Both the position numbers and the translations under genes were made by a program. Shown one piece after another: positions 22,874 to 54,179 of a DNA stretch of 64,000 nt; position 1 is the stretch's first letter, and the number at the start of each line of letters is the position of its first letter. Source of the stretch: Escherichia coli (GTDB lineage: Bacteria; Pseudomonadota; Gammaproteobacteria; Enterobacterales; Enterobacteriaceae); assembly GCF_044324875.1 (NCBI RefSeq), contig NZ_CP172185.1; one strand, given 5' to 3'. The notes beneath the pieces were generated by a model. It saw only the letters and a list, made by a program, of their open reading frames with translations, had not been told where the DNA came from and did no database searches.

Positions 22874-31489
<8,616 letters not shown>

Positions 31490-31801
31490 GCTTACCTTCC
31501 CTGAACGAGCTAACATAAATGCGCCCTTTCTAGCACAGCGAAAAAAAGTAAATCCTGATAGCAATATGATTGAAAATTAATAACTTTTCGTTAAGCAGTT
31601 TTGGGTGTGAGTTGCAAGGGGGAGACTACTGAATTACTCAAGTTTTATAATCGAGGGGAAAATGGTGATGGCGTCCATAGCAAAACGCCCTCAACCATTA
31701 AGGTCGAGGGCGCTTAAGATGTCAAAAACCCGCTATCCGTTAAAAAGCAATGCTCAACTAAGGTCAGTGACATTGGGCTAAAAAAGCGAATTTTTAGAAT
31801 T

Positions 31802-32867: not shown

Positions 32868-32957
32868 CGGAGAGATGCCGGAGCGGCTGAACGGACCGGT
32901 CTCGAAAACCGGAGTGGGGGCAACTCCACCGGGGGTTCAAATCCCCCTCTCTCCGCC
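32868..32957 (+). tRNA. serU: tRNA-Ser (anticodon CGA)
   Basis: GGAGAGATGCCGGAGCGGCTGAACGGACCGGTCTCGAAAACCGGAGTGGGGGCAACTCCACCGGGGGTTCAAATCCCCCTCTCTCCGCCA: long-variable-arm class II tRNA with anticodon CGA. Confidence 0.9.
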
Positions 32958-33002
32958 AAAATTCAATCACTTATACATCATTAAGTCAGTGACAAAAATC
33001 AC

Positions 33003-33038
33003 ACTTGGAATTACTTGGAATATTTTCTTGGAATATTT
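33003..33038. repeat. Three direct CTTGGAAT repeats next to the attachment site (candidate integrase arm-type sites)
   Basis: CTTGGAAT at about 33003, 33013 and 33026, with GGAATATTTT occurring twice; lies between the tRNA-Ser 3' end and the integrase 3' end. Confidence 0.35.
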
Positions 33039-34036
33039 TCAGGTAACGGGACATCAAGTGTTGGTGAAACTTTAACCTTCCGGTCATAGATTAGCACTTG
33101 CCCTTCGGTTTTGTGACCAGAGAAAAGTTGCTTATCCCGGCTGCTTCCTTCATAGTCTGAAATTCCTTTCGCCTTCAGATCATGAAAGGTGAAGTCGGTT
33201 AAAATACCTGAAACTTTGCCTGCGCGATTTCTTGCTTCTACCCACATTTCGTTAAAGCCTTTGTACATATATCGGTTGCCGTATTGATTGCTGATCACAT
33301 AGGCGGATTTTGGTAACTGTTTTGCTTTTTCGACCGCTGCCTGTAATCGTGGACTCCATGCTTTTATCTGTTTTTTCCCTGTTTTCCCTTGCTGGATAAA
33401 GATCCCGTCGTTTCCAATCTGCTCCCATTTCAGCGATAACACATCGGAAACCCTCGCTGCACACAGATAGGCAATTTCCATTGCGATAAAAACAGGAAGG
33501 GGTGCCACGCTTAATACTGCCTGGTATTCTTTGTCGGTTACATATCGTTCGCGGTTTTTGGCCTTGAATTTACTTACTCCTGCACATGGGTTAGCCTTCA
33601 CGTACCCTCGCTCATACCCCCAACTGTAAACACGGGACATACTGCTTTTTTCATGGTTGGCTTGCGTTTTACTCTGTTCCCCTCTTTTGTCCATGTATCG
33701 ACGGATGTGTTCTGGTTTTATGGAATCCGCTGGTACCTTACCGAATACGGCAAGCAACTTTTTTTGATGTTGCAGATAATCTTTTTGTGTTCTTGGACTA
33801 AGGTCACTGTAACAGGCGCTGGCGAGGAATTTTTCCCACAAGCGACCGAATGTCATTGCACGATCGCGATTATTTACAGTTTCCTCATACTTTTTCCATA
33901 AAGCAGCTAAACCATCCTTGATGGCGGTTAGTGTTACAGATTCTCTGGATGTTGGTTTCCATACATAACTATATTTATTTGGGTATACATTTGGAGGTAA
34001 TTTTTCGTGTTCAGGATTTTTCCTTCGTCTTCCCAT
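33011..34036 (-). CDS. int: Tyrosine recombinase (phage integrase)
   Basis: 341 aa ORF adjacent to the tRNA and reading toward it; C-terminal region has tyrosine-recombinase-like R...HxxR...Y spacing (…FTFHDLKAKGISDYEGS…HKTEGQVLIYDRK…). Confidence 0.85.
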   Translation of the reverse strand: MGRRRKNPEHEKLPPNVYPNKYSYVWKPTSRESVTLTAIKDGLAALWKKYEETVNNRDRAMTFGRLWEKFLASACYSDLSPRTQKDYLQHQKKLLAVFGKVPADSIKPEHIRRYMDKRGEQSKTQANHEKSSMSRVYSWGYERGYVKANPCAGVSKFKAKNRERYVTDKEYQAVLSVAPLPVFIAMEIAYLCAARVSDVLSLKWEQIGNDGIFIQQGKTGKKQIKAWSPRLQAAVEKAKQLPKSAYVISNQYGNRYMYKGFNEMWVEARNRAGKVSGILTDFTFHDLKAKGISDYEGSSRDKQLFSGHKTEGQVLIYDRKVKVSPTLDVPLPENIPRKYSK

Positions 34037-38702: not shown

Positions 38703-39068
38703 AGGCACATACCGCTTAGTTACCGCTCTGATAATTCTTACCTGCCCGGCAATGGCGCTGATGTCAATATAAAGCGCCATTGCTGCTTCTTTGCCGATCC
38801 CGGGATGCCTTCCATTCTGATGTTTGACTTCGCCCACTGAGAAATCCTCTGTTTCCCCTTAACGCCGGGGTAGCGGAACAAAAACCTGCTGCATAGTTAA
38901 AGTTAAACCCTGCCGTCATGTTCATACGCCTCGGGCTGGCTACTTAACCCCTGACCACTGCCTGGTAACTCGAAGTATTGCCCTGCGTTCTGTGGGGCGG
39001 GGTGGGTTGGTGAAATTAGTTTATACAAAAATAAACTTAACAGTCAATCTGCAACTTAACTAAACAGT

Positions 39069-39098
39069 AAAAAATAACACTCTCTTTGAGAGTGTTTA
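39069..39098 (-). terminator. Intrinsic terminator downstream of the RelE/ParE-like toxin gene
   Basis: AACACTCTC-TTT-GAGAGTGTT perfect 9-bp stem, followed on the minus strand by a U-run. Confidence 0.5.
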
Positions 39099-39121
39099 AG
39101 GCTGTGTTGATGGGCAGAGGG

Positions 39122-39406
39122 TTATGTTACAGGGAACTGTCGGCGGGTATGGACTACGTTTACTATTTCAATACTTGAGGTTGTCACGCGGTACAGAATT
39201 ATATAATTGGGGTGAGCCACAATCTCACGTAAGCCTGGCACTCTGTCGCTTGGGGGGTATAAATACGGATGTTCGGATAATGGCAGCACACACCCCCTTA
39301 ATCGCTGCCATAAGCGTTCTGCCGCATCTATGTCGAAACGAGCAATGTAACTAGTTATATCATCCAGGTCGGTATCTGCGCTTTCAGGCCATAACACAGG
39401 TAACAT
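39122..39406 (-). CDS. RelE/ParE-family type II toxin
   Basis: 94 aa ORF abutting the stop of an upstream small ORF; typical size and basic C-terminal region for RelE/ParE-family toxins. Confidence 0.7.
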   Translation of the reverse strand: MLPVLWPESADTDLDDITSYIARFDIDAAERLWQRLRGCVLPLSEHPYLYPPSDRVPGLREIVAHPNYIILYRVTTSSIEIVNVVHTRRQFPVT

Positions 39407-39598
39407 TTACTGTTCACTCCGTTCCTTGCGTATTTTAGCAAAGCGTTCTGCCATTCTGCGCTCAACTTCGTCATGGGGAATTGCTGGGCGCGGATCTGCA
39501 AGGCTTGCAGCTACTTTGGCTCGCAGCCATTCGTTGTAACTGTTTTCTTGTTCAATAGTTTCAAACTCAGAAACCATTGGTGAAAGGGCCGTATTCAT
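39407..39598 (-). CDS. Putative antitoxin partner of the RelE/ParE-like toxin
   Basis: Start at internal MNTALSPMVSEF... with GGAGG 7 nt upstream; 63 aa acidic protein directly upstream of and abutting the toxin gene. Confidence 0.55.
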   Translation of the reverse strand: MNTALSPMVSEFETIEQENSYNEWLRAKVAASLADPRPAIPHDEVERRMAERFAKIRKERSEQ

Positions 39599-39627
39599 GG
39601 CACACCTCCGTCTGTGTATGGTGGTCA

Positions 39628-40026
39628 TTATGCCCGATGCCCTTTCCGGGCAGCGAGCCATCTTTCAATTGTGCGATCCATTAACTCTTTTTTGTCTTTC
39701 ATCTCCTGAAGCATTTGCTCTTGATCTTCCTCTGGAAATGCCTCAAATGTTTGAAGTAGCTCCTTTTGCCTAGGAGTTATTTTTATTATATCTTGTATTC
39801 TGTCATTTTTTTCTTCATTTAACGGTAAGAAGAACCAATACTGAGGATATCCTGTTGCTTCAGATAGTTTATCTAGATTAGCTGCTGTAGGGCTTGAGAT
39901 ACCACAAACCCATCTTTGAACGGATTGTTGAGTAATGCCAATTCTGCGCGCAAGTTCTGCCTGGCTCCAGCCTGTTACCAACAAAAGCTTCCTAATTCTA
40001 AGAGCACTAATTTCGAGTACACCCAT
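39628..40026 (-). CDS. XRE-family HTH regulator (repressor-like, paralog A)
   Basis: ORF track frame 39628..40101; HTH segment SQAELARRIGITQQSVQRW; C-terminal 45 aa paralogous to the neighbouring gene; start codon uncertain. Confidence 0.6.
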   Translation of the reverse strand: MGVLEISALRIRKLLLVTGWSQAELARRIGITQQSVQRWVCGISSPTAANLDKLSEATGYPQYWFFLPLNEEKNDRIQDIIKITPRQKELLQTFEAFPEEDQEQMLQEMKDKKELMDRTIERWLAARKGHRA

Positions 40027-40060
40027 CTGATATATCTTGTTTTTAAGAGTATGCTTCCCA

Positions 40061-40432
40061 TCAGGCGCGGCGACCTTGCTGCGCCAACCAACGTGCGACA
40101 AAATCTTCCATTGCTTCTTTTTTGTTTCTTAGTTCTTTTATGATCTCTTGCTGTTCATTATCAGGAAATGCACTAAATATTTGTAGCAATTCCAGCTGGT
40201 TAGGGGTTAATGCTATAGCTCTTGATGATGGAGACTCTGTTATGTCTTCTGGCTCAATATCAAGATAACCCCCTGGCATCCCATATGTTTGTTCAATACG
40301 TCTAGCTGCTTTTTCGCCAAACGTAGCCTTACCGCTCATTAACTGAGATAAGTAACTTTTCTCTTTGGGTGGCAAAGTTCTGTCTTTGAACCACTCTTTG
40401 AGGCGTAAACGCCGAATCTCTCTTGTTTCCAT
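40061..40432 (-). CDS. HTH regulator (CI-like repressor lacking a peptidase domain, paralog B)
   Basis: 123 aa; C-terminal segment LTPNQLELLQIFSAFPDNEQQEIIKELRNKKEAMEDFVARWLAQ resembles that of paralog A; divergent from the Cro-like gene. Confidence 0.65.
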   Translation of the reverse strand: METREIRRLRLKEWFKDRTLPPKEKSYLSQLMSGKATFGEKAARRIEQTYGMPGGYLDIEPEDITESPSSRAIALTPNQLELLQIFSAFPDNEQQEIIKELRNKKEAMEDFVARWLAQQGRRA

Positions 40433-40535
40433 ACATGCATTATCTTTAGTAATTGCGAAATAAGCAAATACTTGACTGGTTTATTTAGTTACGTATAAAC
40501 TTTTGCTTGCACTAAAGTATGTTGAGATCGAAATC

Positions 40536-40823
40536 ATGACTCTAAAGGAATTCATCAAATCATTAAAAACTGGAGAAGCAAAAAAATTTGCTGCCAACCT
40601 TGGTGTGTCTCCGTCCTTCTTGTCTCAAATGGCATCTGGCAGTTCACCAGTGTCTCCTGTTCGTGCGTTAATGATAGAAGCAGAAACTGCAGGGCATGTT
40701 ACAAGAAGAGAGTTGAGGCCGAATGACTGGGATCTTATATGGCCGGAATACACCGGAATTACGCCCCCTTCAAGTCATAAATATGAGCTTAACACCAAAA
40801 AAGTTGATGGGGTTGATTCATGA
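40536..40823 (+). CDS. Cro/YdaS-like small DNA-binding protein
   Basis: Start at internal MTLKEFIKSLKTGEAKKFAANLGVSPSFLSQM...; divergent from the repressor genes. Confidence 0.55.
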   Translation: MTLKEFIKSLKTGEAKKFAANLGVSPSFLSQMASGSSPVSPVRALMIEAETAGHVTRRELRPNDWDLIWPEYTGITPPSSHKYELNTKKVDGVDS

Positions 40824-41245
40824 AAATCAAACATGAGCACATCCGCATGGCGATGAATGCCTGGGCGCATCCGGACGGCGAAAAAGTACCGGCTGCGAAA
40901 ATTACCAAAGCGTATTTCGAACTGGGTATGACGTTCCCGGAACTGTACGACGACAGCCACCCTGAAGCCCTGGCGCGTAATACCCAGAAAATTTTCCGCT
41001 GGGTAGAGAAAGACACCCCTGATGCAGTTGAAAAAATTCAGGCGTTGTTACCAGCGATCGAAAAGGCAATGCCACCTTTGCTGGTGGCCAGAATGCGCAG
41101 CCACAGTTCAGCTTATTTTCGGGAGCTGGTGGAGATGCGGGAACGACTGGTGAGAGACGCTGATGATTTTGTCGCGGTGGCAATAGCTGGCTTCAACCAG
41201 ATCAACCGTGGTGGCCCGGCCGGAAATGCTGTGGCTGTGCATTGA
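40820..41245 (+). CDS. YdaT-like / CII-position early regulator
   Basis: 141 aa ORF overlapping the Cro-like stop; gene order resembles Rac ydaS-ydaT-ydaU-ydaV. Confidence 0.4.
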   Translation: MKIKHEHIRMAMNAWAHPDGEKVPAAKITKAYFELGMTFPELYDDSHPEALARNTQKIFRWVEKDTPDAVEKIQALLPAIEKAMPPLLVARMRSHSSAYFRELVEMRERLVRDADDFVAVAIAGFNQINRGGPAGNAVAVH

Positions 41246-41316
41246 TCGGCAATATTCATACCGGATCTCTTTCGGTAATACGTGATTAAAAAGATTCGGT
41301 ATCTGAAGAGGTTAGT

Positions 41317-42387
41317 ATGGCTAATGCCTGGCTCAGATTATGGCATGACATGCCAAATGACCCCAAGTGGCGAACCATTGCCCGGGTGTCAGGTCAGCCA
41401 ATTGCAACAGTGATGGCTGTGTATATCCACCTCCTGGTGAGCGCGTCACGAAATGTCACGCGAGGTCACATTGATGTCACGACCGAGGATTTGGCAAGTG
41501 CGCTCGATGTGACAGAAGAGATGATTGATTCAATTTTGCAGACGATGCAGGGGCGGGTACTTGATGGTGATTTAATCACTGGATGGGAAAAACGCCAGGT
41601 GCTGAAAGAGGACAACGGCAATATTTCGCAAACCGCAAAATCTCCTGCAGAGCGCAAGAGGGCGCAGCGAGAGAGGGAAAGAAAGCGGGAACAAAATGGC
41701 GATTGTCACGGCGCGTCACGAAATGTCACGCACATGTCACGACGAGTCACGACAGATAAAGATACAGATAAAGATACAGATCAAGAAGATCAAAACACTA
41801 TGGTCCATGGCGTGAAAAACGCCACGAACCAGGCTGGGGATGTTCAGACCGTCAATCCTGATCAGCCCGCAGGCACGACACCGGAAGCCGATTCAGCGTA
41901 TGCGCTGAAAGCCGATTCGGGCGCTGTGCAGCAGGCGATGACCGCAGGGTCGGAGCAATCACACCAACTGCAGCAGCCTGAAGCCGATTCCGCGATTCAG
42001 CGGGAAGCCGATCGGGTAGTCCCGGAAAACACCGGGCAGCCTGTGGGACGAGTGGATTATCCGGATGTGTTCGAACAGGTCTGGCGGGAATACCCGTTGC
42101 GTGCCGGGGCAAACCCGAAGAAATCCGCTTTCAGTGCCTGGAAGGCCAGATTACGCGAGGGGGTGCCACCGCAGGTCATGCTGGATGGTGTGAGGCGTTA
42201 CGCGAGGTACCTGGCGGCGACCGGGAAAGCGGGAACGGAATTTGTTCAGCGGGCGACAACGTTTTTTGGACCTGACCGGAATTTTGAAAACCCCTGGTTG
42301 CTCCCGACTGGCGGGACGAACAACCAGCGTTGTGTGAATCATATTTCCGAACCGGATACCGAAATTCCACCAGGTTTCAGGGGGTGA
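41317..42387 (+). CDS. Replication initiation protein (YdaU-like) with internal origin iterons
   Basis: 356 aa; N-terminal MANAWLRLWHDMPNDPKWRTIARVSGQP...; the gene body contains two clusters of GTCACG repeats. Confidence 0.6.
   Translation: MANAWLRLWHDMPNDPKWRTIARVSGQPIATVMAVYIHLLVSASRNVTRGHIDVTTEDLASALDVTEEMIDSILQTMQGRVLDGDLITGWEKRQVLKEDNGNISQTAKSPAERKRAQRERERKREQNGDCHGASRNVTHMSRRVTTDKDTDKDTDQEDQNTMVHGVKNATNQAGDVQTVNPDQPAGTTPEADSAYALKADSGAVQQAMTAGSEQSHQLQQPEADSAIQREADRVVPENTGQPVGRVDYPDVFEQVWREYPLRAGANPKKSAFSAWKARLREGVPPQVMLDGVRRYARYLAATGKAGTEFVQRATTFFGPDRNFENPWLLPTGGTNNQRCVNHISEPDTEIPPGFRG
41444..41752. repeat. Candidate replication-origin iterons (GTCACG repeats at about 10-bp spacing, two clusters)
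   Basis: Cluster 1 at about 41444..41481 (four GTCAC copies); cluster 2 at about 41705..41752 (five GTCACG copies at 10-11 bp spacing); followed by A-rich GATAAAGATACAGATAAAGATACAGATCAAGAAGATCAAAAC. Confidence 0.5.
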
Positions 42388-42393
42388 AGGATT

Positions 42394-43140
42394 ATGAAAA
42401 ATATAGCGGCAGGAGGTGTTCTTGAACGTATCCGCAAGCTGGCACCACAGCATGTAACCGCGCCGTACCGGACGGCAGAAGAGTGGCGTGAGTGGCAACT
42501 TGCGGAAGGCCAGAAACGTTGCGAGGAGATCAACCGTCAGAATCGTCAGTTACGGGTGGAAAAAATTCTGAATCGCTCCGGTATCCAGCCGTTGCACCGC
42601 AAATGTTCGTTTGCGAATTACTGGGTGCAGAACGACGGCCAGCGATATGCGCTGAGCCAGGCAAAATCCATCGCGGACGTACTGAGAACCGGATGCACAA
42701 ATTTCGTGTTCAGCGGTAAGCCGGGTACCGGAAAAAATCACCTGGCAGCCGCCATCGGTAATCATCTTCTGGCGAAAGGTCGCAGCGTGATTGTGGTCAC
42801 GGTGGCTGATGTGATGCTGGCGCTACACGGCATCTACGATAACAAAAACTCAGGCGAAAAATTTTTGCAGGGTTTGTGTGACGTTGACCTGCTGGTTCTG
42901 GATGAGATTGGCATGCAGCGTGATACGCGCAACGAACAGGTCACACTGAACCAGATCGTCGATCGCAGAACAGCCGCGATGCGCAGTGTCGGGATGCTGA
43001 CGAACCTGAATCATACCGCAATGAGCACCCTGCTTGGCGGGCGCGTGATGGACCGCATGACCATGAACGGTGGGCGCTGGGTGAATTTTAACTGGGAGAG
43101 CTGGCGTGCGAATGTCGGTCAGCCAGGAATTGAAAAGTAA
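42394..43140 (+). CDS. DnaC/IstB-like AAA+ helicase loader
   Basis: 248 aa with Walker A GKPGTGKNHLAAAIG and Walker B LLVLDEIG; follows the initiator gene. Confidence 0.75.
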   Translation: MKNIAAGGVLERIRKLAPQHVTAPYRTAEEWREWQLAEGQKRCEEINRQNRQLRVEKILNRSGIQPLHRKCSFANYWVQNDGQRYALSQAKSIADVLRTGCTNFVFSGKPGTGKNHLAAAIGNHLLAKGRSVIVVTVADVMLALHGIYDNKNSGEKFLQGLCDVDLLVLDEIGMQRDTRNEQVTLNQIVDRRTAAMRSVGMLTNLNHTAMSTLLGGRVMDRMTMNGGRWVNFNWESWRANVGQPGIEK

Positions 43141-43163
43141 TTTTATCGGGGAGAAAAAATTTA

Positions 43164-43934
43164 ATGGAAACCGTTTTAGACGCACTGAAAGCAATGGGAA
43201 AAGCCACGTCGGTAGAATTGGCTACGCGACTTGATATCAGTCGTGAAGAAGTTCTGAACGAGCTGTGGGAACTCAAAAGAAATGGCCTCGTTGATAAAAC
43301 TGGTCACATCTGGTTTCTGGCTGGCGAAGGTGAATCCCGGGTAACCGAAGAGCGACCAGTAAAATCTGAAGCACAGGATATGCTGACCGGGGAGGTTGAA
43401 CAAAAAGTTACCGCAGACATGATGATTGAGTTTATCAGTCAGGAGGGGGCTAAAACGTGTGAGGAACTGGCGGGTAAGTTCGGTGTCAGCACTCGCAAGG
43501 TTGCTTCCACACTGGCGGTAGTAACCGCAACGGGGCGGCTGGCACGCGTTAATCGGAACGGTAAATTTAGTTACTGCATGCCGGGCGATAATTTACCGGC
43601 AGAGCCGAAAGCTGCACCGGTAACGAAAACGGCTGGTAAGGCCTTTCCTCAGCCAGCAGGTGTTGCGTTACCAGTACAGGAAGCTGCAACACAGGAAGAA
43701 ATTACAACAGATACTGTGGCGGACATTGTGCAGTCGCTGCCATCGTTTACTGAAACGCGAGCGGATGACCTGGTTTTACCATCGCTGCATATGGCAAACC
43801 GCGAATTGCGTCGGGCGAAAAATCATGTTCAGAAGTGGGAGCGAGTCTGCGCCGCGCTGCGGGAGCTGAACAAGCACCGGGATATTGTTCGACAGATTAC
43901 TGATTCTTCCCGCCGTGTTGTATCGGAAAAGTGA
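43164..43934 (+). CDS. Hypothetical phage protein (predicted winged-helix domains)
   Basis: 256 aa ORF in operon continuity; no family recognised with confidence. Confidence 0.5.
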   Translation: METVLDALKAMGKATSVELATRLDISREEVLNELWELKRNGLVDKTGHIWFLAGEGESRVTEERPVKSEAQDMLTGEVEQKVTADMMIEFISQEGAKTCEELAGKFGVSTRKVASTLAVVTATGRLARVNRNGKFSYCMPGDNLPAEPKAAPVTKTAGKAFPQPAGVALPVQEAATQEEITTDTVADIVQSLPSFTETRADDLVLPSLHMANRELRRAKNHVQKWERVCAALRELNKHRDIVRQITDSSRRVVSEK

Positions 43935-44344
43935 TTGCCGGAGGCGCTTATGGCAAAAGTATTTACACAAGAAGAGCGGGAAAAATTAAAGGGCAGGTTG
44001 TCGAACTCGTGCGACAGAGCGGGCGCGAGACGTTACGACAACTGGAAGCGAAAACAGGTGCGACAAGATATCTGCTGAGCGTTCTTGCCAGAGAGCTGGT
44101 TGCCAGTGGTGATGTATACAATTCAGGCTACGGATTATTCCCGTCTGAGCAGGCGCGTAAAGACTGGCAAAACGCCCGCAAAAAACTATCAAGGGAAAAG
44201 GTGAAAAAACCGGTTGTGGTTGATCCTGACCTTATCTGGTCATTACCAGACGGAGAAATACGCCGCTACGACAGGCGCCTGAATATAATCTGTCGCGAGT
44301 GCCGGAAGAGCGAAGCTATGCAGCGTGTACTGGCATTTTATTAA
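43931..44344 (+). CDS. Hypothetical phage protein
   Basis: 137 aa ORF with GTG start overlapping the upstream stop. Confidence 0.45.
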   Translation: MIAGGAYGKSIYTRRAGKIKGQVVELVRQSGRETLRQLEAKTGATRYLLSVLARELVASGDVYNSGYGLFPSEQARKDWQNARKKLSREKVKKPVVVDPDLIWSLPDGEIRRYDRRLNIICRECRKSEAMQRVLAFY

Positions 44345-44549
44345 GGAAATGTTAGGTATTTTAGACGTTACTAGATTAAAGAGCATTAGTTCAGATGTGA
44401 ATTGACATTTTCATGGCGCAGGGTAGAGCTAGTGTGGTTGTCCGCTTTGCGTCAAAACCAGATATTACCAGATTTAGACATATATTCCCGATAGCCCTGC
44501 TCTGATGCTACACTCTGTGCTATTTTCATGACCCCCAATAAAAATATTT

Positions 44550-45215
44550 ATGACTATTGCTGATTTCAAACGGCCTAAATTGGAGCTCCCGAACGGGGCA
44601 AACAAACTACTACTGCACTCTTGCTGTGCTCCATGTTCCGGTGAAGTGATGGAGGCGCTTCAGGCCTCGGGAATCGACTACACCATCTTTTTCTACAACC
44701 CGAACATTCATCCTCAGAAAGAGTATTTAATTCGTAAGGATGAAAATATTCGCTTTGCTGAACAACACGGCGTGCCGTTTATCGATGCTGATTACGACAC
44801 CGACAACTGGTTTGAACGTGCCAAAGGAATGGAATGGGAGCCTGAGAGGGGGATCCGTTGTACCATGTGTTTTGACATGCGTTTTGAGCGGACAGCGTTG
44901 TACGCTGCTGAAAATGGTTTCAGTGTGATCAGCAGTTCACTGGGCATTTCACGCTGGAAAAATATGCAGCAGGTTAACGAGTGTGGGCGGCGAGCTGTTG
45001 CGCATTATCCGGGTATGGTGTACTGGGATTATAACTGGCGCAAGCAGGGCGGCTCGTCCCGTATGATTGAAATCAGCAAGCGCGAAAAATTCTATCAGCA
45101 GGAATATTGTGGCTGTGTGTATTCTCTGCGCGATACCAATCTACACCGCAAATCTCAGGGACGCCCTCTTATAAAAATTGGCCAACTCCACTACGGAAAA
45201 GAAGAGAAGGAGTGA
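44550..45215 (+). CDS. DUF208 / QueH-like protein (putative B12-independent epoxyqueuosine reductase)
   Basis: 221 aa with N-terminal [14 protein letters not shown] motif and further conserved Cys (…[10 protein letters not shown]…, …EYCGCVYS…), resembling what I remember of the DUF208/QueH family; own promoter-like region upstream. Confidence 0.55.
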
Positions 45216-45451
45216 TTTTATGGATCACCTTTCTGATTGATTTCATATTGGCGAGGTGACGGGAGTTAAGTAGAATTGCTGCGGGTGCTTGAGGCTATCT
45301 GCCTCGGGCATGAACACCAACGGCAGATAGAGAAAAGCCCCAGTTAACATTATGCGTCCTGCAAGACGCTTAACATTAATCTGAGGCAGAATCTATGTCT
45401 AGCAAATGTAGGTTAGCCTCTTACGTGCCGAAAGGCAAGGAGAAGCAGGCT

Positions 45452-45607
45452 ATGAAGCAGCAAAAGGCGATGTTAGTCGCCCTGATCGTCATCTGTATTA
45501 CCGTCATTGTGACGGCACTGGTAACGAGGAAAGACCTCTGCGAGGTACGAATCCGAACCGGCCAGACGGAGGTCGCTGTCTTCACAGCTTACGAACCTGA
45601 GGAGTAA
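45452..45607 (+). CDS. hok: Hok/Gef-family type I toxin
   Basis: MKQQKAMLVALIVICITVIVTALVTRKDLCEVRIRTGQTEVAVFTAYEPEE, 51 aa, near-identical to chromosomal Hok/Gef peptides; the ORF track frame extends in-frame upstream to 45395. Confidence 0.8.
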   Translation: MKQQKAMLVALIVICITVIVTALVTRKDLCEVRIRTGQTEVAVFTAYEPEE

Positions 45608-45711
45608 GAGACCAGGCGAGGGAGAAATCCCTCGCCACCTCTGATGTGTCAGGCATTCTCAACGCACCCGCACTTAACCCGCTTCGGCTGTTCCTTAGTT
45701 TGTCCTGATTT

Positions 45712-46065
45712 TTATTTATTACTAATACATGATTTAATTCCTTGAATCCTCTTGTTTTTTCCATTGGTAGGATCTAACACACCTCGAAGAGAATAAAAAT
45801 CAATAGTGGTAGAGCCGTCTGCTGACTTATAAATGTCGGCATTATCTGCAACTGCTAATACACTGTAATATTTACCAATTTTTTGAGAAGTGATAGTATA
45901 CAAGAGAGGTACACGTTGCCACTCACTGAGAATGCATTCTTGTATTTCTTGTGGTGGAGAATTTGTTTTAAATGAAATGATAATATCCTGCTCTTCTCTA
46001 TAATTATAAGGGTTTACGCATCCAGAAATTGCGAAAGAAAACAGAAGAATAATGATCCTGTTCAT
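45712..46065 (-). CDS. Small lipoprotein of unknown function
   Basis: ORF track frame 45712..46095; start at internal MNRIIILLFSFAISGC (signal peptide plus lipobox-like ISGC); gene is AT-rich by eye. Confidence 0.55.
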   Translation of the reverse strand: MNRIIILLFSFAISGCVNPYNYREEQDIIISFKTNSPPQEIQECILSEWQRVPLLYTITSQKIGKYYSVLAVADNADIYKSADGSTTIDFYSLRGVLDPTNGKNKRIQGIKSCISNK

Positions 46066-51939: not shown

Positions 51940-52422
51940 ATGTCAGGACCCCCGAAAACCCCGCCACGCCTGCATTTGATACGAGGCAACCCCTCAAAGC
52001 GCCCCGTTAAAGACCCAAAAAAAACCGCTAAAAAGGATGAAAAAGGTCTCCCTAAAATTCCGCAACATTTAGGGTCGCAGGGGAAGTACTGGTTCAGGCG
52101 AATGGCGGAAGAACTGAATGCGGAAGGGATCATTTCTCAGCTTGATGCGCGTGCACTCGAGTTACTGGTGGAAGCCTACACCGAATACCGGCATTACTGC
52201 GAAACACTCGATGTTGAGGGGTATACCTACCGCACGGAAACGCAGAACGGTGATGTGCTGATTAAGGCACACCCGGCTGCTGCGATGAAAGCGGATGCCT
52301 GGAAGCGGATCCGGGCGATGCTTGCAGAATTTGGTATGTCACCGGCAAGCCGGGCGAAAGTAAATACCGCCGGACCGGATGATGTTGATCCGCTGGCGGA
52401 GCTTTTAAAAGCGAGAGACTGA
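51940..52422 (+). CDS. Terminase small subunit
   Basis: 160 aa ORF immediately preceding and abutting the terminase large subunit. Confidence 0.7.
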   Translation: MSGPPKTPPRLHLIRGNPSKRPVKDPKKTAKKDEKGLPKIPQHLGSQGKYWFRRMAEELNAEGIISQLDARALELLVEAYTEYRHYCETLDVEGYTYRTETQNGDVLIKAHPAAAMKADAWKRIRAMLAEFGMSPASRAKVNTAGPDDVDPLAELLKARD

Positions 52423-54179
52423 TGGCAAAAGTGGCTGACGGGATCCGCTACGCCGAACGTGTTGTTGCAGGAGAAATTGTTGCTGGCGAATTTGTCCGCC
52501 TAGCCTGCCAGCGTTTTCTTGATGATCTGAAGTACGGCGAAGAGCGGGGGATTTATTTCAGTGAACCCCGTGCGCAGCACATCCTGAATTTCTACAAATT
52601 TGTGCCCCATGTGAAAGGGGCGCTGGCAGGCCAGCCCATTGAGTTGATGGACTGGCATGTATTTATCCTCATTAATATTTTTGGTTTTGTCATTCCGCTG
52701 GTGAATGAAGAGACCGGGGAAGTTGTCATGCGCAGCGATGGCAGCGGACGCCCGGTGATGGTGCGCCGGTTCCGGACGGCGTACAACGAAGTCGCCCGTA
52801 AAAACGCAAAATCAACCCTGTCATCGGGTATCGGCCTGTATATGACGGGGGCAGATGGTGAAGGCGGTGCTGAGGTTTATTCAGCCGCAACCACGCGTGA
52901 TCAGGCCAGAATTGTGTTTGAAGACGCCAAAAATATGGTCAGAAAAGCCCGGTCGACACTCGGGCGGTTGTTTGATTTCAACAAGCTGGCGATTTACCAG
53001 GAGCAGAGCGCATCAAAATTTGAGCCGCTTTCCTCGGATGCAAACAATCTGGACGGTCTGAACATCCACTGCGCCATTATTGATGAGCTGCATGCACATA
53101 AAACCCGTGACGTGTGGGACGTTCTGGAAACGGCAACCGGTGCCCGTCTGCAGTCCCTTTTATTTGGTATCACCACGGCAGGGTTTAACAAGGAAGGGAT
53201 TTGTTACGAGCAGCGTGATTACGCCATCAAGGTATTGCGTGGCTATAACAGCGACGTGGAGGGCGCGGTAAAAGACGACTCCTACTTTGCGATTATTTAC
53301 ACCCTCGATGAGGGAGATGATCCGTTTGATGAAACGGTCTGGCAGAAAGCGAATCCCGGCCTGGGCATCTGTAAACGCTGGGATGATCTGCGTCGCCTGG
53401 CGAAAAAAGCGAAAGAACAGGTCTCTGCGCGGGTGAATTTTTTTACCAAACACATGAATGTGTGGGTCACTGCCGAATCAGCCTGGATGGACATGATTAA
53501 GTGGGAGAAGTGCGAATATATTGCTCCACGACATGAGCTGAAAACATATCCCATGTGGGTCGGCGTTGACCTTGCTCATAAGATTGATATCTGTGCAGCG
53601 GCAAAACTCTGGCGAACGGATAACGGGCATGTTCATGCCGATTTTAAATTCTGGCTTCCGGAAGGACGGCTGGAACGATGCTCGCGGCAGCAGGCAGAAC
53701 TTTACCGGAAGTGGGCGGAGATGGATAAGCTGATTCTGACGGATGGTGATGTTATCGATCATGGCCAGATAAAAAGTGACTTACTGGAATGGACTGGTGG
53801 TGAAAACCTCAGGGAACTGGGATTTGACCCGTGGAGCGCGATGCAGTTCAGCCTGGCACTGGCTGAAGAAGGGATACCGCTGGTGGAGGTTCCGCAGACG
53901 GTTCGCAATCTGTCAGAGGCCATGAAGGAAACGGAATCACTGGTCTATGCCGGGCGTTTCCATCACAGCAATCACCCGGTCATGAACTGGATGATGTCTA
54001 ACGTTACGGTGAAACCGGACAAAAACGACAATATCTTCCCGAATAAATGCACGCCGGAAGCCAAAATCGACGGCCCTGTTGCGCTTTTTACAGCCATGAG
54101 CCGCCTTCTGGTAAATGGCGGGGACGTGAATGACTTTCTGTCCACGCTTGATCCTGATGAGGACCTGTTAATTCTGTGA
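52422..54179 (+). CDS. Terminase large subunit
   Basis: 585 aa; size and position fit a terminase ATPase/nuclease. Confidence 0.85.
   Translation: MAKVADGIRYAERVVAGEIVAGEFVRLACQRFLDDLKYGEERGIYFSEPRAQHILNFYKFVPHVKGALAGQPIELMDWHVFILINIFGFVIPLVNEETGEVVMRSDGSGRPVMVRRFRTAYNEVARKNAKSTLSSGIGLYMTGADGEGGAEVYSAATTRDQARIVFEDAKNMVRKARSTLGRLFDFNKLAIYQEQSASKFEPLSSDANNLDGLNIHCAIIDELHAHKTRDVWDVLETATGARLQSLLFGITTAGFNKEGICYEQRDYAIKVLRGYNSDVEGAVKDDSYFAIIYTLDEGDDPFDETVWQKANPGLGICKRWDDLRRLAKKAKEQVSARVNFFTKHMNVWVTAESAWMDMIKWEKCEYIAPRHELKTYPMWVGVDLAHKIDICAAAKLWRTDNGHVHADFKFWLPEGRLERCSRQQAELYRKWAEMDKLILTDGDVIDHGQIKSDLLEWTGGENLRELGFDPWSAMQFSLALAEEGIPLVEVPQTVRNLSEAMKETESLVYAGRFHHSNHPVMNWMMSNVTVKPDKNDNIFPNKCTPEAKIDGPVALFTAMSRLLVNGGDVNDFLSTLDPDEDLLIL

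Follow-up and report, generated by a model that had tools for sequence, protein, structure and literature searches.

The window analysed here is a stretch of 64,000 nucleotides (64 kb) of an Escherichia coli chromosome (contig NZ_CP172185.1), which carries a lambdoid prophage beside tRNA-Ser(cga). Within this prophage an open reading frame (ORF) at 41317..42387 on the + strand encodes a protein of 356 residues annotated as a replication initiator. Two arrays of short direct repeats inside this gene, together with an A-rich tract that follows the second of them, in all likelihood form a lambda-style vegetative (theta-type) origin from which the prophage replicates, situated within the initiator gene itself. 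The amn/shiA stretch of the window is 99% identical to E. coli. An earlier note on this DNA had proposed such an embedded origin. Every feature that this proposal leads one to expect at the level of sequence was found, most of them across the whole protein family, and the parallel with lambda appears to be one of design rather than of homology.

The repeated word is GTCAC. Nine same-strand copies lie on the + strand in two arrays, all within 41317..42387. Array 1 (41445..41481, + strand) has four copies, reading GTCACG, GTCACG, GTCACA and GTCACG, which begin at 41445, 41455, 41465 (the GTCACA copy) and 41476 and are thus spaced by 10, 10 and 11 bp; it codes for residues 43-55, the end of helix 2 and a loop. 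Array 2 (41705..41751, + strand) is the core array, found in nearly all family members, and has five copies, every one of them GTCACG, beginning at 41705, 41715, 41725, 41736 and 41746 (spacing 10, 10, 11 and 10 bp); it codes for residues 130-145, in a disordered linker. Tandem Repeats Finder describes 41704-41754 as a repeat of period 10 with 5.0 copies and the consensus TGTCACGACA. The clusters of GTCACG at roughly 10-bp spacing that the earlier note had seen inside the initiator gene are therefore borne out, as nine copies spaced by 10 or 11 bp. Its placement of the repeats in an inter-domain linker holds for array 2, whose residues are disordered in the AlphaFold model described below, and fails for array 1, which codes for part of the winged-helix domain.

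GTCACG as such is not enriched, with 35 matches in the window against 27.8 +/- 5.7 expected. It is the clustering of GTCAC that stands out: nine same-strand copies fall within 320 bp and five within 50 bp, and 300 first-order Markov simulations of all 64 kb gave maxima of 6 and 4, respectively. GTCAC/TCACG is the most locally clustered pentamer of the window. No second cluster of GTCACG was found in the window, which leaves part of the prophage outside its limits.

A probable single inverted iteron (41509..41513, - strand; GTGAC on the + strand) lies 33 nt past the last copy of array 1. An inverted copy occurs at this same offset in the window and in eleven other loci of our collection (L002, L004, L005, L143, L148, L150, L151, L156, L157, L159 and L168), and in clades with other iterons, too, the clade's own word recurs in inverted orientation close to array 1. 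It stands at nt 166 of the gene in the GCAAC clade and in some GTGAC loci (L089-L099), and in L152 the entire array 1 is inverted (nt 202-260). The number of iterons is stable at 4+5 in 71 of 80 close relatives surveyed; each of the other nine either lacks a single copy in one array or has its gene truncated by the end of the locus. The site of array 1 does accept insertions. In E. coli C311 (L002) array 1 has six copies, the two extra iterons adding seven residues to the protein, and far larger arrays are present in L116.

Array 2 is followed at once by the predicted DNA unwinding element (41752..41800, + strand), an A-rich stretch of 49 nt of which 35 are purines, with GATC at 41779 and 41788. 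Its first part (41752-41787) is made of a 12-nt tandem repeat, ACAGATAAAGAT, for which Tandem Repeats Finder gives period 12 and 2.9 copies at 41752-41786; this is the A-rich repeat that the earlier note had described after the clusters, and it directly adjoins array 2. The least stable 40-mer of the region 40400-43300 is 41756-41795, at -43.4 kcal/mol, which places it within the least stable 1% of the window (window-wide 99th percentile, -44.0), and the tract adjoins the last iteron. Directly past the tract lies a G+C-rich inverted repeat (41801..41831, TGGTCCATGGCGT / ACGCCACGAACCA) with a stem of 13 pairs, G-T pairs being allowed, and a loop of 5 nt. At this place L001, L002, L005 and L007 have G+C-rich inverted repeats of other sequence. 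Translated as (TDKD)n, the ACAGATAAAGAT unit is present in anything from about 1.5 to 6 copies in otherwise near-identical relatives (L009-L088), and its copy number alters both the length of the protein (352-368 residues) and that of the predicted unwinding tract.

This layout is conserved in the family at large. A first scan of IMG/VR returned near-identical copies only, and diversity came from scans with divergent seeds; the diverse set used here was seeded with the homologue from Ralstonia phage Firinga and comprises 80 loci with 40-100% identity to the seed. Arrays were defined as identical pentamers at 9-12-bp spacing within the first 750 nt of the gene. Chains of at least three pentamers were present in 78 of these 80 relatives, of at least four in 62 and of at least five in 48. 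In the 750-nt flanks of 75 loci no chain of at least five was seen, and a chain of four was seen in four. Array 2 always lies directly past the conserved N-terminal domain (N-domain), at nt 330-500, and array 1 (nt 117-215) is present in about half of the loci. The two arrays of a locus always share one word, and this word differs from clade to clade: GTCACG, GTGACG, GCAACG, GTAACG, GAAACG, CGAACGC and GGAAC were found, a comparison from which the iteron core is deduced to be G-N-N-A-C. GTCACG itself is common to phages of Escherichia, Aeromonas and Pseudomonas. Helical phasing between the two arrays has a resultant of 0.65 at a period of 10.4 bp; this is not independent evidence, because the length of the intervening coding sequence is conserved and the arrays change by whole units, so that quantised gaps would arise in any case. 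The gene's least stable 40-mer begins between -10 and +40 nt from the end of the array in 70 of 72 relatives, and the unstable stretch that follows the array has an A+T content of 60%, compared with 40% for the gene, and is 76% purine on the coding strand.

These last data bear on the idea that the arrays serve the initiator only as regulatory sites, for autorepression by roadblock, for titration or for copy-number control, while the DNA is opened elsewhere in the prophage. The iterons of many replicons do have control functions as well, and it may be added that array 1 is 260 bp away from the A-rich tract and can be dispensed with in half of the family. A purely regulatory role, however, does not predict that the least stable duplex should abut the array in nearly every relative, and the array, the A-rich tract and the inverted repeat stand in the order that they would have in an origin. 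We therefore consider regulation alone to be an improbable explanation of the arrays.

If the arrays are bound by the initiator as parts of an origin, the variation of the word between clades might be reflected in the protein. A relationship of this kind was found in 68 classified loci. Where base 3 of the iteron is C, residue 114 is K (26/27); where the base is G, the residue is T (11/14), and where it is A, S or V (26/27). Residue 114, which is K114 in the window, is the most informative column of the alignment, carrying 1.32 of the 1.53 bits on base 3. The next columns are 117, 121 and 110, and these positions lie on one face of a basic helix formed by residues 110-127 (coding sequence 41644..41697, + strand; PAERKRAQRERERKREQN; AlphaFold confidence, expressed as the predicted local distance difference test or pLDDT, 73-82). 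Residue 111 tracks base 2, being T where the base is C or A (20/21) and A where the base is T (36/47). When the N-domains are clustered the iteron classes are interspersed. The rule was checked on 80 fresh IMG/VR loci, where it gave the right base in 14 of 14 cases (GTAAC with V, 6/6; GAAAC with V, 5/5; GTGAC with T, 1/1; GTCAC with K, 2/2). The fresh loci also contained two new classes, CGAAC with A114 and W117 (40/47) and GGAAC with K114 and W117 (9/9). From these sequences and the structural model we predict that the basic helix 110-127 is the element that reads the iteron, with K114 and Q117 as specificity residues. We put forward more tentatively, as a proposal with rather less than an even claim to belief, that the code is simple and readable: a basic helix placed after the winged helix would read a G-N-N-A-C iteron at 10/11-bp spacing, and one or two residues would set the variable bases, with residue 114 being K where the base is C, T where it is G and V or S where it is A, and with 111 and 117 as modulators.

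Nature has provided exchanges of parts in which the same association can be followed. In E. coli C3 (L001) YdaT is 95% identical to that of the window, the N-terminal half of the initiator (N-half) 99% and DUF1627 85%, and the GTCACG arrays are kept; its C-terminal half (C-half), with a DnaT domain, and its lambda-P-type loader are of other kinds. E. coli O157:H7 493/89 (L003) presents the reverse case. Its YdaT (90% identity), C-half (95%), DnaC-like loader (80%) and DUF1627 (85%) are those of the window, whereas its N-half is unrelated (hhalign probability 0.2%) and its arrays consist of AAGGGGCTT at 11-bp spacing, at 2160-2201 and 2416-2457 of the locus, 256 bp apart. These arrays are followed by a purine-rich repeat, AAGAACAGGA, so that the design is the same with another word and another protein family; the unrelated N-half of this locus has evolved or kept the same two-array design. 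Megablast comparisons of E. coli genomes place breakpoints at 41774 and 41792, inside the A-rich tract. From the breakpoints and the swaps it follows that the N-half takes the iterons with it when parts are exchanged, and that YdaT, the C-half, the loader and DUF1627 do not. The cassette of N-half and iterons is found with at least four types of partner, namely a DnaC-like loader, a lambda-P-like loader, a DnaB helicase (Firinga) and a primase-helicase (Pseudomonas phages).

Comparison of the iteron word with its companions also addresses the idea that the arrays bind some protein other than the initiator, such as a host winged-helix response regulator like PhoB, a partition or centromere-binding protein, or the small subunit of terminase. 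Direct repeats at one helical turn are typical of OmpR/PhoB-type sites, of R1 parC and of some pac sites, and TGTCAC resembles the half-site of the pho box, CTGTCAT, which PhoB recognises as a repeat every 11 bp. Yet the word changes with the residues of the initiator's helix and not with the host, GTCACG being shared by phages of the three genera named above, and the natural swaps exclude YdaT, the loader and DUF1627 as specificity determinants. Further, no partition genes lie next to the arrays, and the only ORF of the size of a terminase (52422-54179, judged by size alone) is about 10 kb from them. A different ligand thus seems very improbable.

A further question is whether the repeats are maintained for the protein or for the DNA. 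Because the period is 10/11 bp, the GTCAC copies fall in all three reading frames and encode different residues (SR, VT, GH and CH). Homologues with about 70% protein identity are present in Aeromonas phage pAEv1818 and Pseudomonas phage Marin; their GTCAC arrays, with 4+3 and 4+4 copies, occupy the same codons and are separated by 259-260 bp. In pairwise comparisons among the window, pAEv1818 and Marin, codons whose third base falls within GTCAC are identical in 11/11, 10/10 and 10/10 cases; other codons for a shared residue, in the same codon alignment, are identical in about 45% (Fisher p 5e-4 to 1e-3). In addition, residues change where the word stays: SQGVT compared with SRNVT in L004, ICHD compared with NVTH in L002, and in one instance with a shift of 1 nt. 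Judged by these sequences, the repeat is selected as DNA and not as protein. It is hardly credible, then, that the arrays arose by neutral slippage in a low-complexity linker or as a repeated peptide with no function at the DNA level: the linker is disordered and slippage does change the copy number of the adjacent ACAGATAAAGAT repeat between near-identical relatives, but the array period is out of frame with differing residues encoded, no synonymous site within the words differs between phages of three host genera, the copy number is stable at 4+5, and arrays, each class with its own word, are seen again and again in a family of > 7,000 clusters. Even taken jointly, the three alternatives weighed here appear unlikely, and we return to the embedded origin.

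The initiator gene (41317..42387, + strand) specifies a member of phrog_3729, 'replication initiation protein' (E 1.1e-250 over residues 1-356 of 356, the label being an annotation), and residues 1-187 also match phrog_1408, of the same name (E 5.9e-29); relatives are named 'phage replisome organizer' by NCBI. Of 5,426 complete E. coli genomes, 2,239 contain a relative, and at 50% identity the N-domain family falls into about 7,163 clusters (E <= 1e-3). An AlphaFold model of residues 1-165, built from an alignment of 79 sequences (mean pLDDT 78), shows a winged-helix-like fold at residues 16-93 (pLDDT > 90), with helices at 16-25, 29-45, 56-63 and 67-77 and a beta hairpin at 78-88. The basic helix follows, residues 128-165 are disordered, and the C-half lies beyond. 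A 36-nt direct repeat (41881-41916 / 41977-42012, 78% identity) in the C-terminal linker encodes PEADSA-type peptides, and the homologue from O157 (L003) has an eight-residue gap at its first copy; this is probably low-complexity linker variation. Two records of P. aeruginosa, CP137943.1 (L251) and CP124671.1, are 50.9-kb circular 'plasmids' that encode the N-domain with 69.5% identity. In CP137943 its gene has as neighbours an S24 repressor, a CII-like regulator and a DnaB-like helicase-domain protein; both records are phage genomes present as extrachromosomal circles.

These observations can be assembled into a mechanism, in which protein binding, melting, loader recruitment and origin activity are steps that we infer. 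Upon induction, transcription from the cro-side promoter would yield the 356-residue initiator and the DnaC-like loader. Initiator molecules would then line up head-to-tail along one face of the DNA, each helical turn holding one of them, bound to the five iterons of array 2 and to the four copies in array 1, with binding probably assisted by the inverted copy at 41509-41513 along with array 1. The basic helix 110-127 would read each iteron, K114 and Q117 reading the variable TC of G-T-C-A-C, and the winged-helix domain would give further contacts or permit oligomerisation. The resulting nucleoprotein complex would melt the adjacent 49-bp A-rich tract (41752-41800), after which the C-half would recruit the DnaC-like loader with host DnaB and replication would start.

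Several observations weigh against this reading. Array 1 is missing from about half of the family and is dispensable there. In the literature searched we found neither experimental binding or origin activity for this family nor a published mapped origin, and a paper on the replication regions ('Eru') of Shiga toxin (Stx) phages does not treat this module. Searches with Pfam and NCBIfam gave nothing above threshold for the initiator, and no Pfam family at E <= 0.01 in a search with the whole protein, and the lambda O family, Phage_rep_O, gave no match, which indicates that the initiator is not an O homologue. The Pfam profile for replisome organizer N-termini, PF09681 (Phage_rep_org_N), aligns its positions 1-116 of 121 with residues 5-125 at 16.8 bits (E 0.0067), below the gathering cut-off of 23.3, and at E <= 0.01 it finds no match in the remaining 78 of the 79 family sequences; any relation to PF09681 would at most be distant. 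No characterised initiator matches the N-domain significantly. A search of PDB sequences with the family profile gave one match at the level of chance, and Foldseek comparison of the N-domain model with the PDB gave weak matches throughout, all with E > 0.3; many of these are winged-helix regulators, which informs about fold class only. A strict pairing of C-half and loader was rejected, the DnaT-domain C-half being found both with a lambda-P-type loader (L001) and with a DnaC-like one (L004, an Aeromonas phage). Finally, the iterons lie in or beside the DNA that codes for the N-domain and the helix, and since the helix is encoded right beside array 2, linkage and shared ancestry contribute to the covariation of residues and bases; linkage contributes to the argument from swaps as well. 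The restriction of the informative positions to one face of the helix and the success of the rule on fresh loci nevertheless argue that the covariation reflects more than linkage alone.

The surroundings of the gene are those of an early right operon. Two repressor-like genes on the - strand are followed by a cro-like gene (YdaS), a cII-like gene (YdaT, phrog_163), the initiator gene, a DnaC-like ATPase gene and DUF1627. Between the divergent repressor-like and cro-like genes lies a candidate pR-like promoter (40472..40501, + strand; TTGACT, 18 nt, TAAACT), which scores 9/12 in a consensus scan and from which transcription might, on this weak evidence, traverse the origin; promoter and terminator scans of the region returned as many sites as expected from shuffled sequence. 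The presumed partner of the initiator, the helicase loader encoded at 42394..43140 (+ strand), matches NCBIfam PRK12377 (NF009043; 485.6 bits, above the cut-off of 389), Pfam IstB_IS21 and phrog_50. With 305 bits it is below the cut-off of 357 for the DnaC equivalog, and we therefore call it DnaC-like and not DnaC itself. No DnaA boxes were found near the origin, nor any enrichment of them. An explanation by an RNA motif was rejected, sok being the only Rfam match in 39000-46000.

Some other features of the window may be recorded. The sok antitoxin RNA (45283-45457, + strand) is a full-length Rfam match with 114.9 bits against a gathering score of 59, and it overlaps the start of a 70-residue ORF (45395-45607) with a hydrophobic stretch, which makes this a hok/sok-type toxin-antitoxin locus in the prophage. 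Between the replication genes and this locus, a 221-residue ORF (44550-45215, + strand) contains a CCAPC motif and presumably resembles the DUF208/QueH family. The two repressor-like ORFs (39628-40101 and 40061-40432, both - strand), upstream of the cro-like gene, overlap. The first matches HTH_3 and the second has no Pfam match, and their C-terminal 45 or so residues are similar (LTPNQLELLQIFSAFPDNEQQEI and ITPRQKELLQTFEAFPEEDQEQM), which suggests that the immunity region may be duplicated or of a two-repressor type. Beside it lies a pair of small ORFs (39122-39406 and 39407-39661, both - strand), and the same place in E. coli C3 (L001) is annotated with a RelE/ParE-family toxin and a RelB antitoxin. 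At the left edge of the phage-like region tRNA-Ser(cga) (32869-32958, + strand) adjoins a 341-residue ORF (33011-34036, - strand), and the two are likely to be the attachment site and the integrase. The chromosomal part of the window includes four tRNA-Asn genes upstream and a 2,896-residue ORF (22874-31564, - strand) within which three ORFs of 141-172 residues run on the opposite strand.

As a whole, these results would provide a concrete origin annotation for a very common prophage module, whose N-domain family, at about 7,000 clusters, is large, yet is captured by no Pfam model. The proposed placement of the origin would explain why mosaic breakpoints fall directly past the iterons. The relation between residues and bases bears on replication incompatibility and independence among the lambdoid prophages of pathogenic E. 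coli, and the family is a possible source of orthogonal pairs of origin and initiator. Should the recognition rule be true, origin specificity would be predictable from protein sequence for thousands of phages and could be re-programmed by point mutation. Since the iterons sit in or beside the DNA that codes for their reader, origin and initiator would then evolve and recombine as one self-contained cassette, from which many mutually incompatible origin specificities among co-resident prophages would follow.

The closest parallel in design is provided by lambda O and ori-lambda. In ori-lambda an inverted repeat lies beyond the A-rich tract, as it does here. In lambda and its Stx variants, as in the window, the origin is inside the initiator gene, with iterons followed by an A+T-rich unwinding tract, and in lambda the helicase-loader gene likewise comes after the initiator gene in the early right operon. 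The number of iterons varies in both systems and adds residues to the protein, six instead of four giving seven more residues in L002. For lambda and the Stx phages the location of the origin within the initiator gene is established (PMC7466680), and in the latter six iterons instead of four add 13 residues (PMC7466680). The differences are that O is not homologous to the initiator of the window, that lambda's iterons are of about 19-20 bp whereas the units here are of 10/11 bp and head-to-tail, that there are here two arrays 260 bp (about 25 helical turns) apart, one of them in the coding sequence of the DNA-binding domain, and that the loader is P in lambda and DnaC-like here.

An origin has also been predicted in gene 18 of Salmonella phage L, where six 11-bp repeats, TGTCCAACGGA, are annotated as the likely origin (PMC8022706). 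Like the arrays of the window, these are 11-bp direct repeats in two groups within the initiator gene, followed by a very A+T-rich tract (L169, 1501-1577). However, the proteins are without detectable homology (BLASTP E 1.0; hhalign probability 2%), some 45 bp separate the two groups in phage L, both of which lie mid-gene, and the partner there is a DnaB-type helicase. Experimental precedents come from phages of Gram-positive hosts, in which respect they differ from the present case. The replisome organizer gp38 of SPP1 has been shown to bind direct repeats in its own gene, at oriL (PMC6316719), and binding of the organizer to direct repeats within its gene was likewise demonstrated for ORF13 of TP901-1 and Rep2009 of Tuc2009 (Ostergaard 2001 and McGrath 1999, according to PMC8965321). 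The three share with the window direct repeats in the initiator's own gene beside an A+T-rich unwinding element, with a helicase loader acting downstream. TP901-1 ORF13 differs in its HTH_36 and DnaB_2 domains, in having no detectable relation to the N-domain of the window and in a repeat period of 15 bp, and SPP1 differs in possessing a second copy of the origin, oriR, of which none was seen in this window. Since profile comparisons of the family with the N-half of L003, phage L gp18 and TP901-1 ORF13 show no homology, the common layout is parallel and not inherited. A mechanistic analogue is found in regulators of the OmpR/PhoB type, monomers of which occupy one-turn direct repeats head-to-tail on one face of the DNA; these are transcription factors of unrelated sequence, and in the initiator the predicted reading helix is C-terminal to the winged helix. 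Considered alongside these systems, the prophage origin proposed here would confirm the lambda paradigm and not overturn it.

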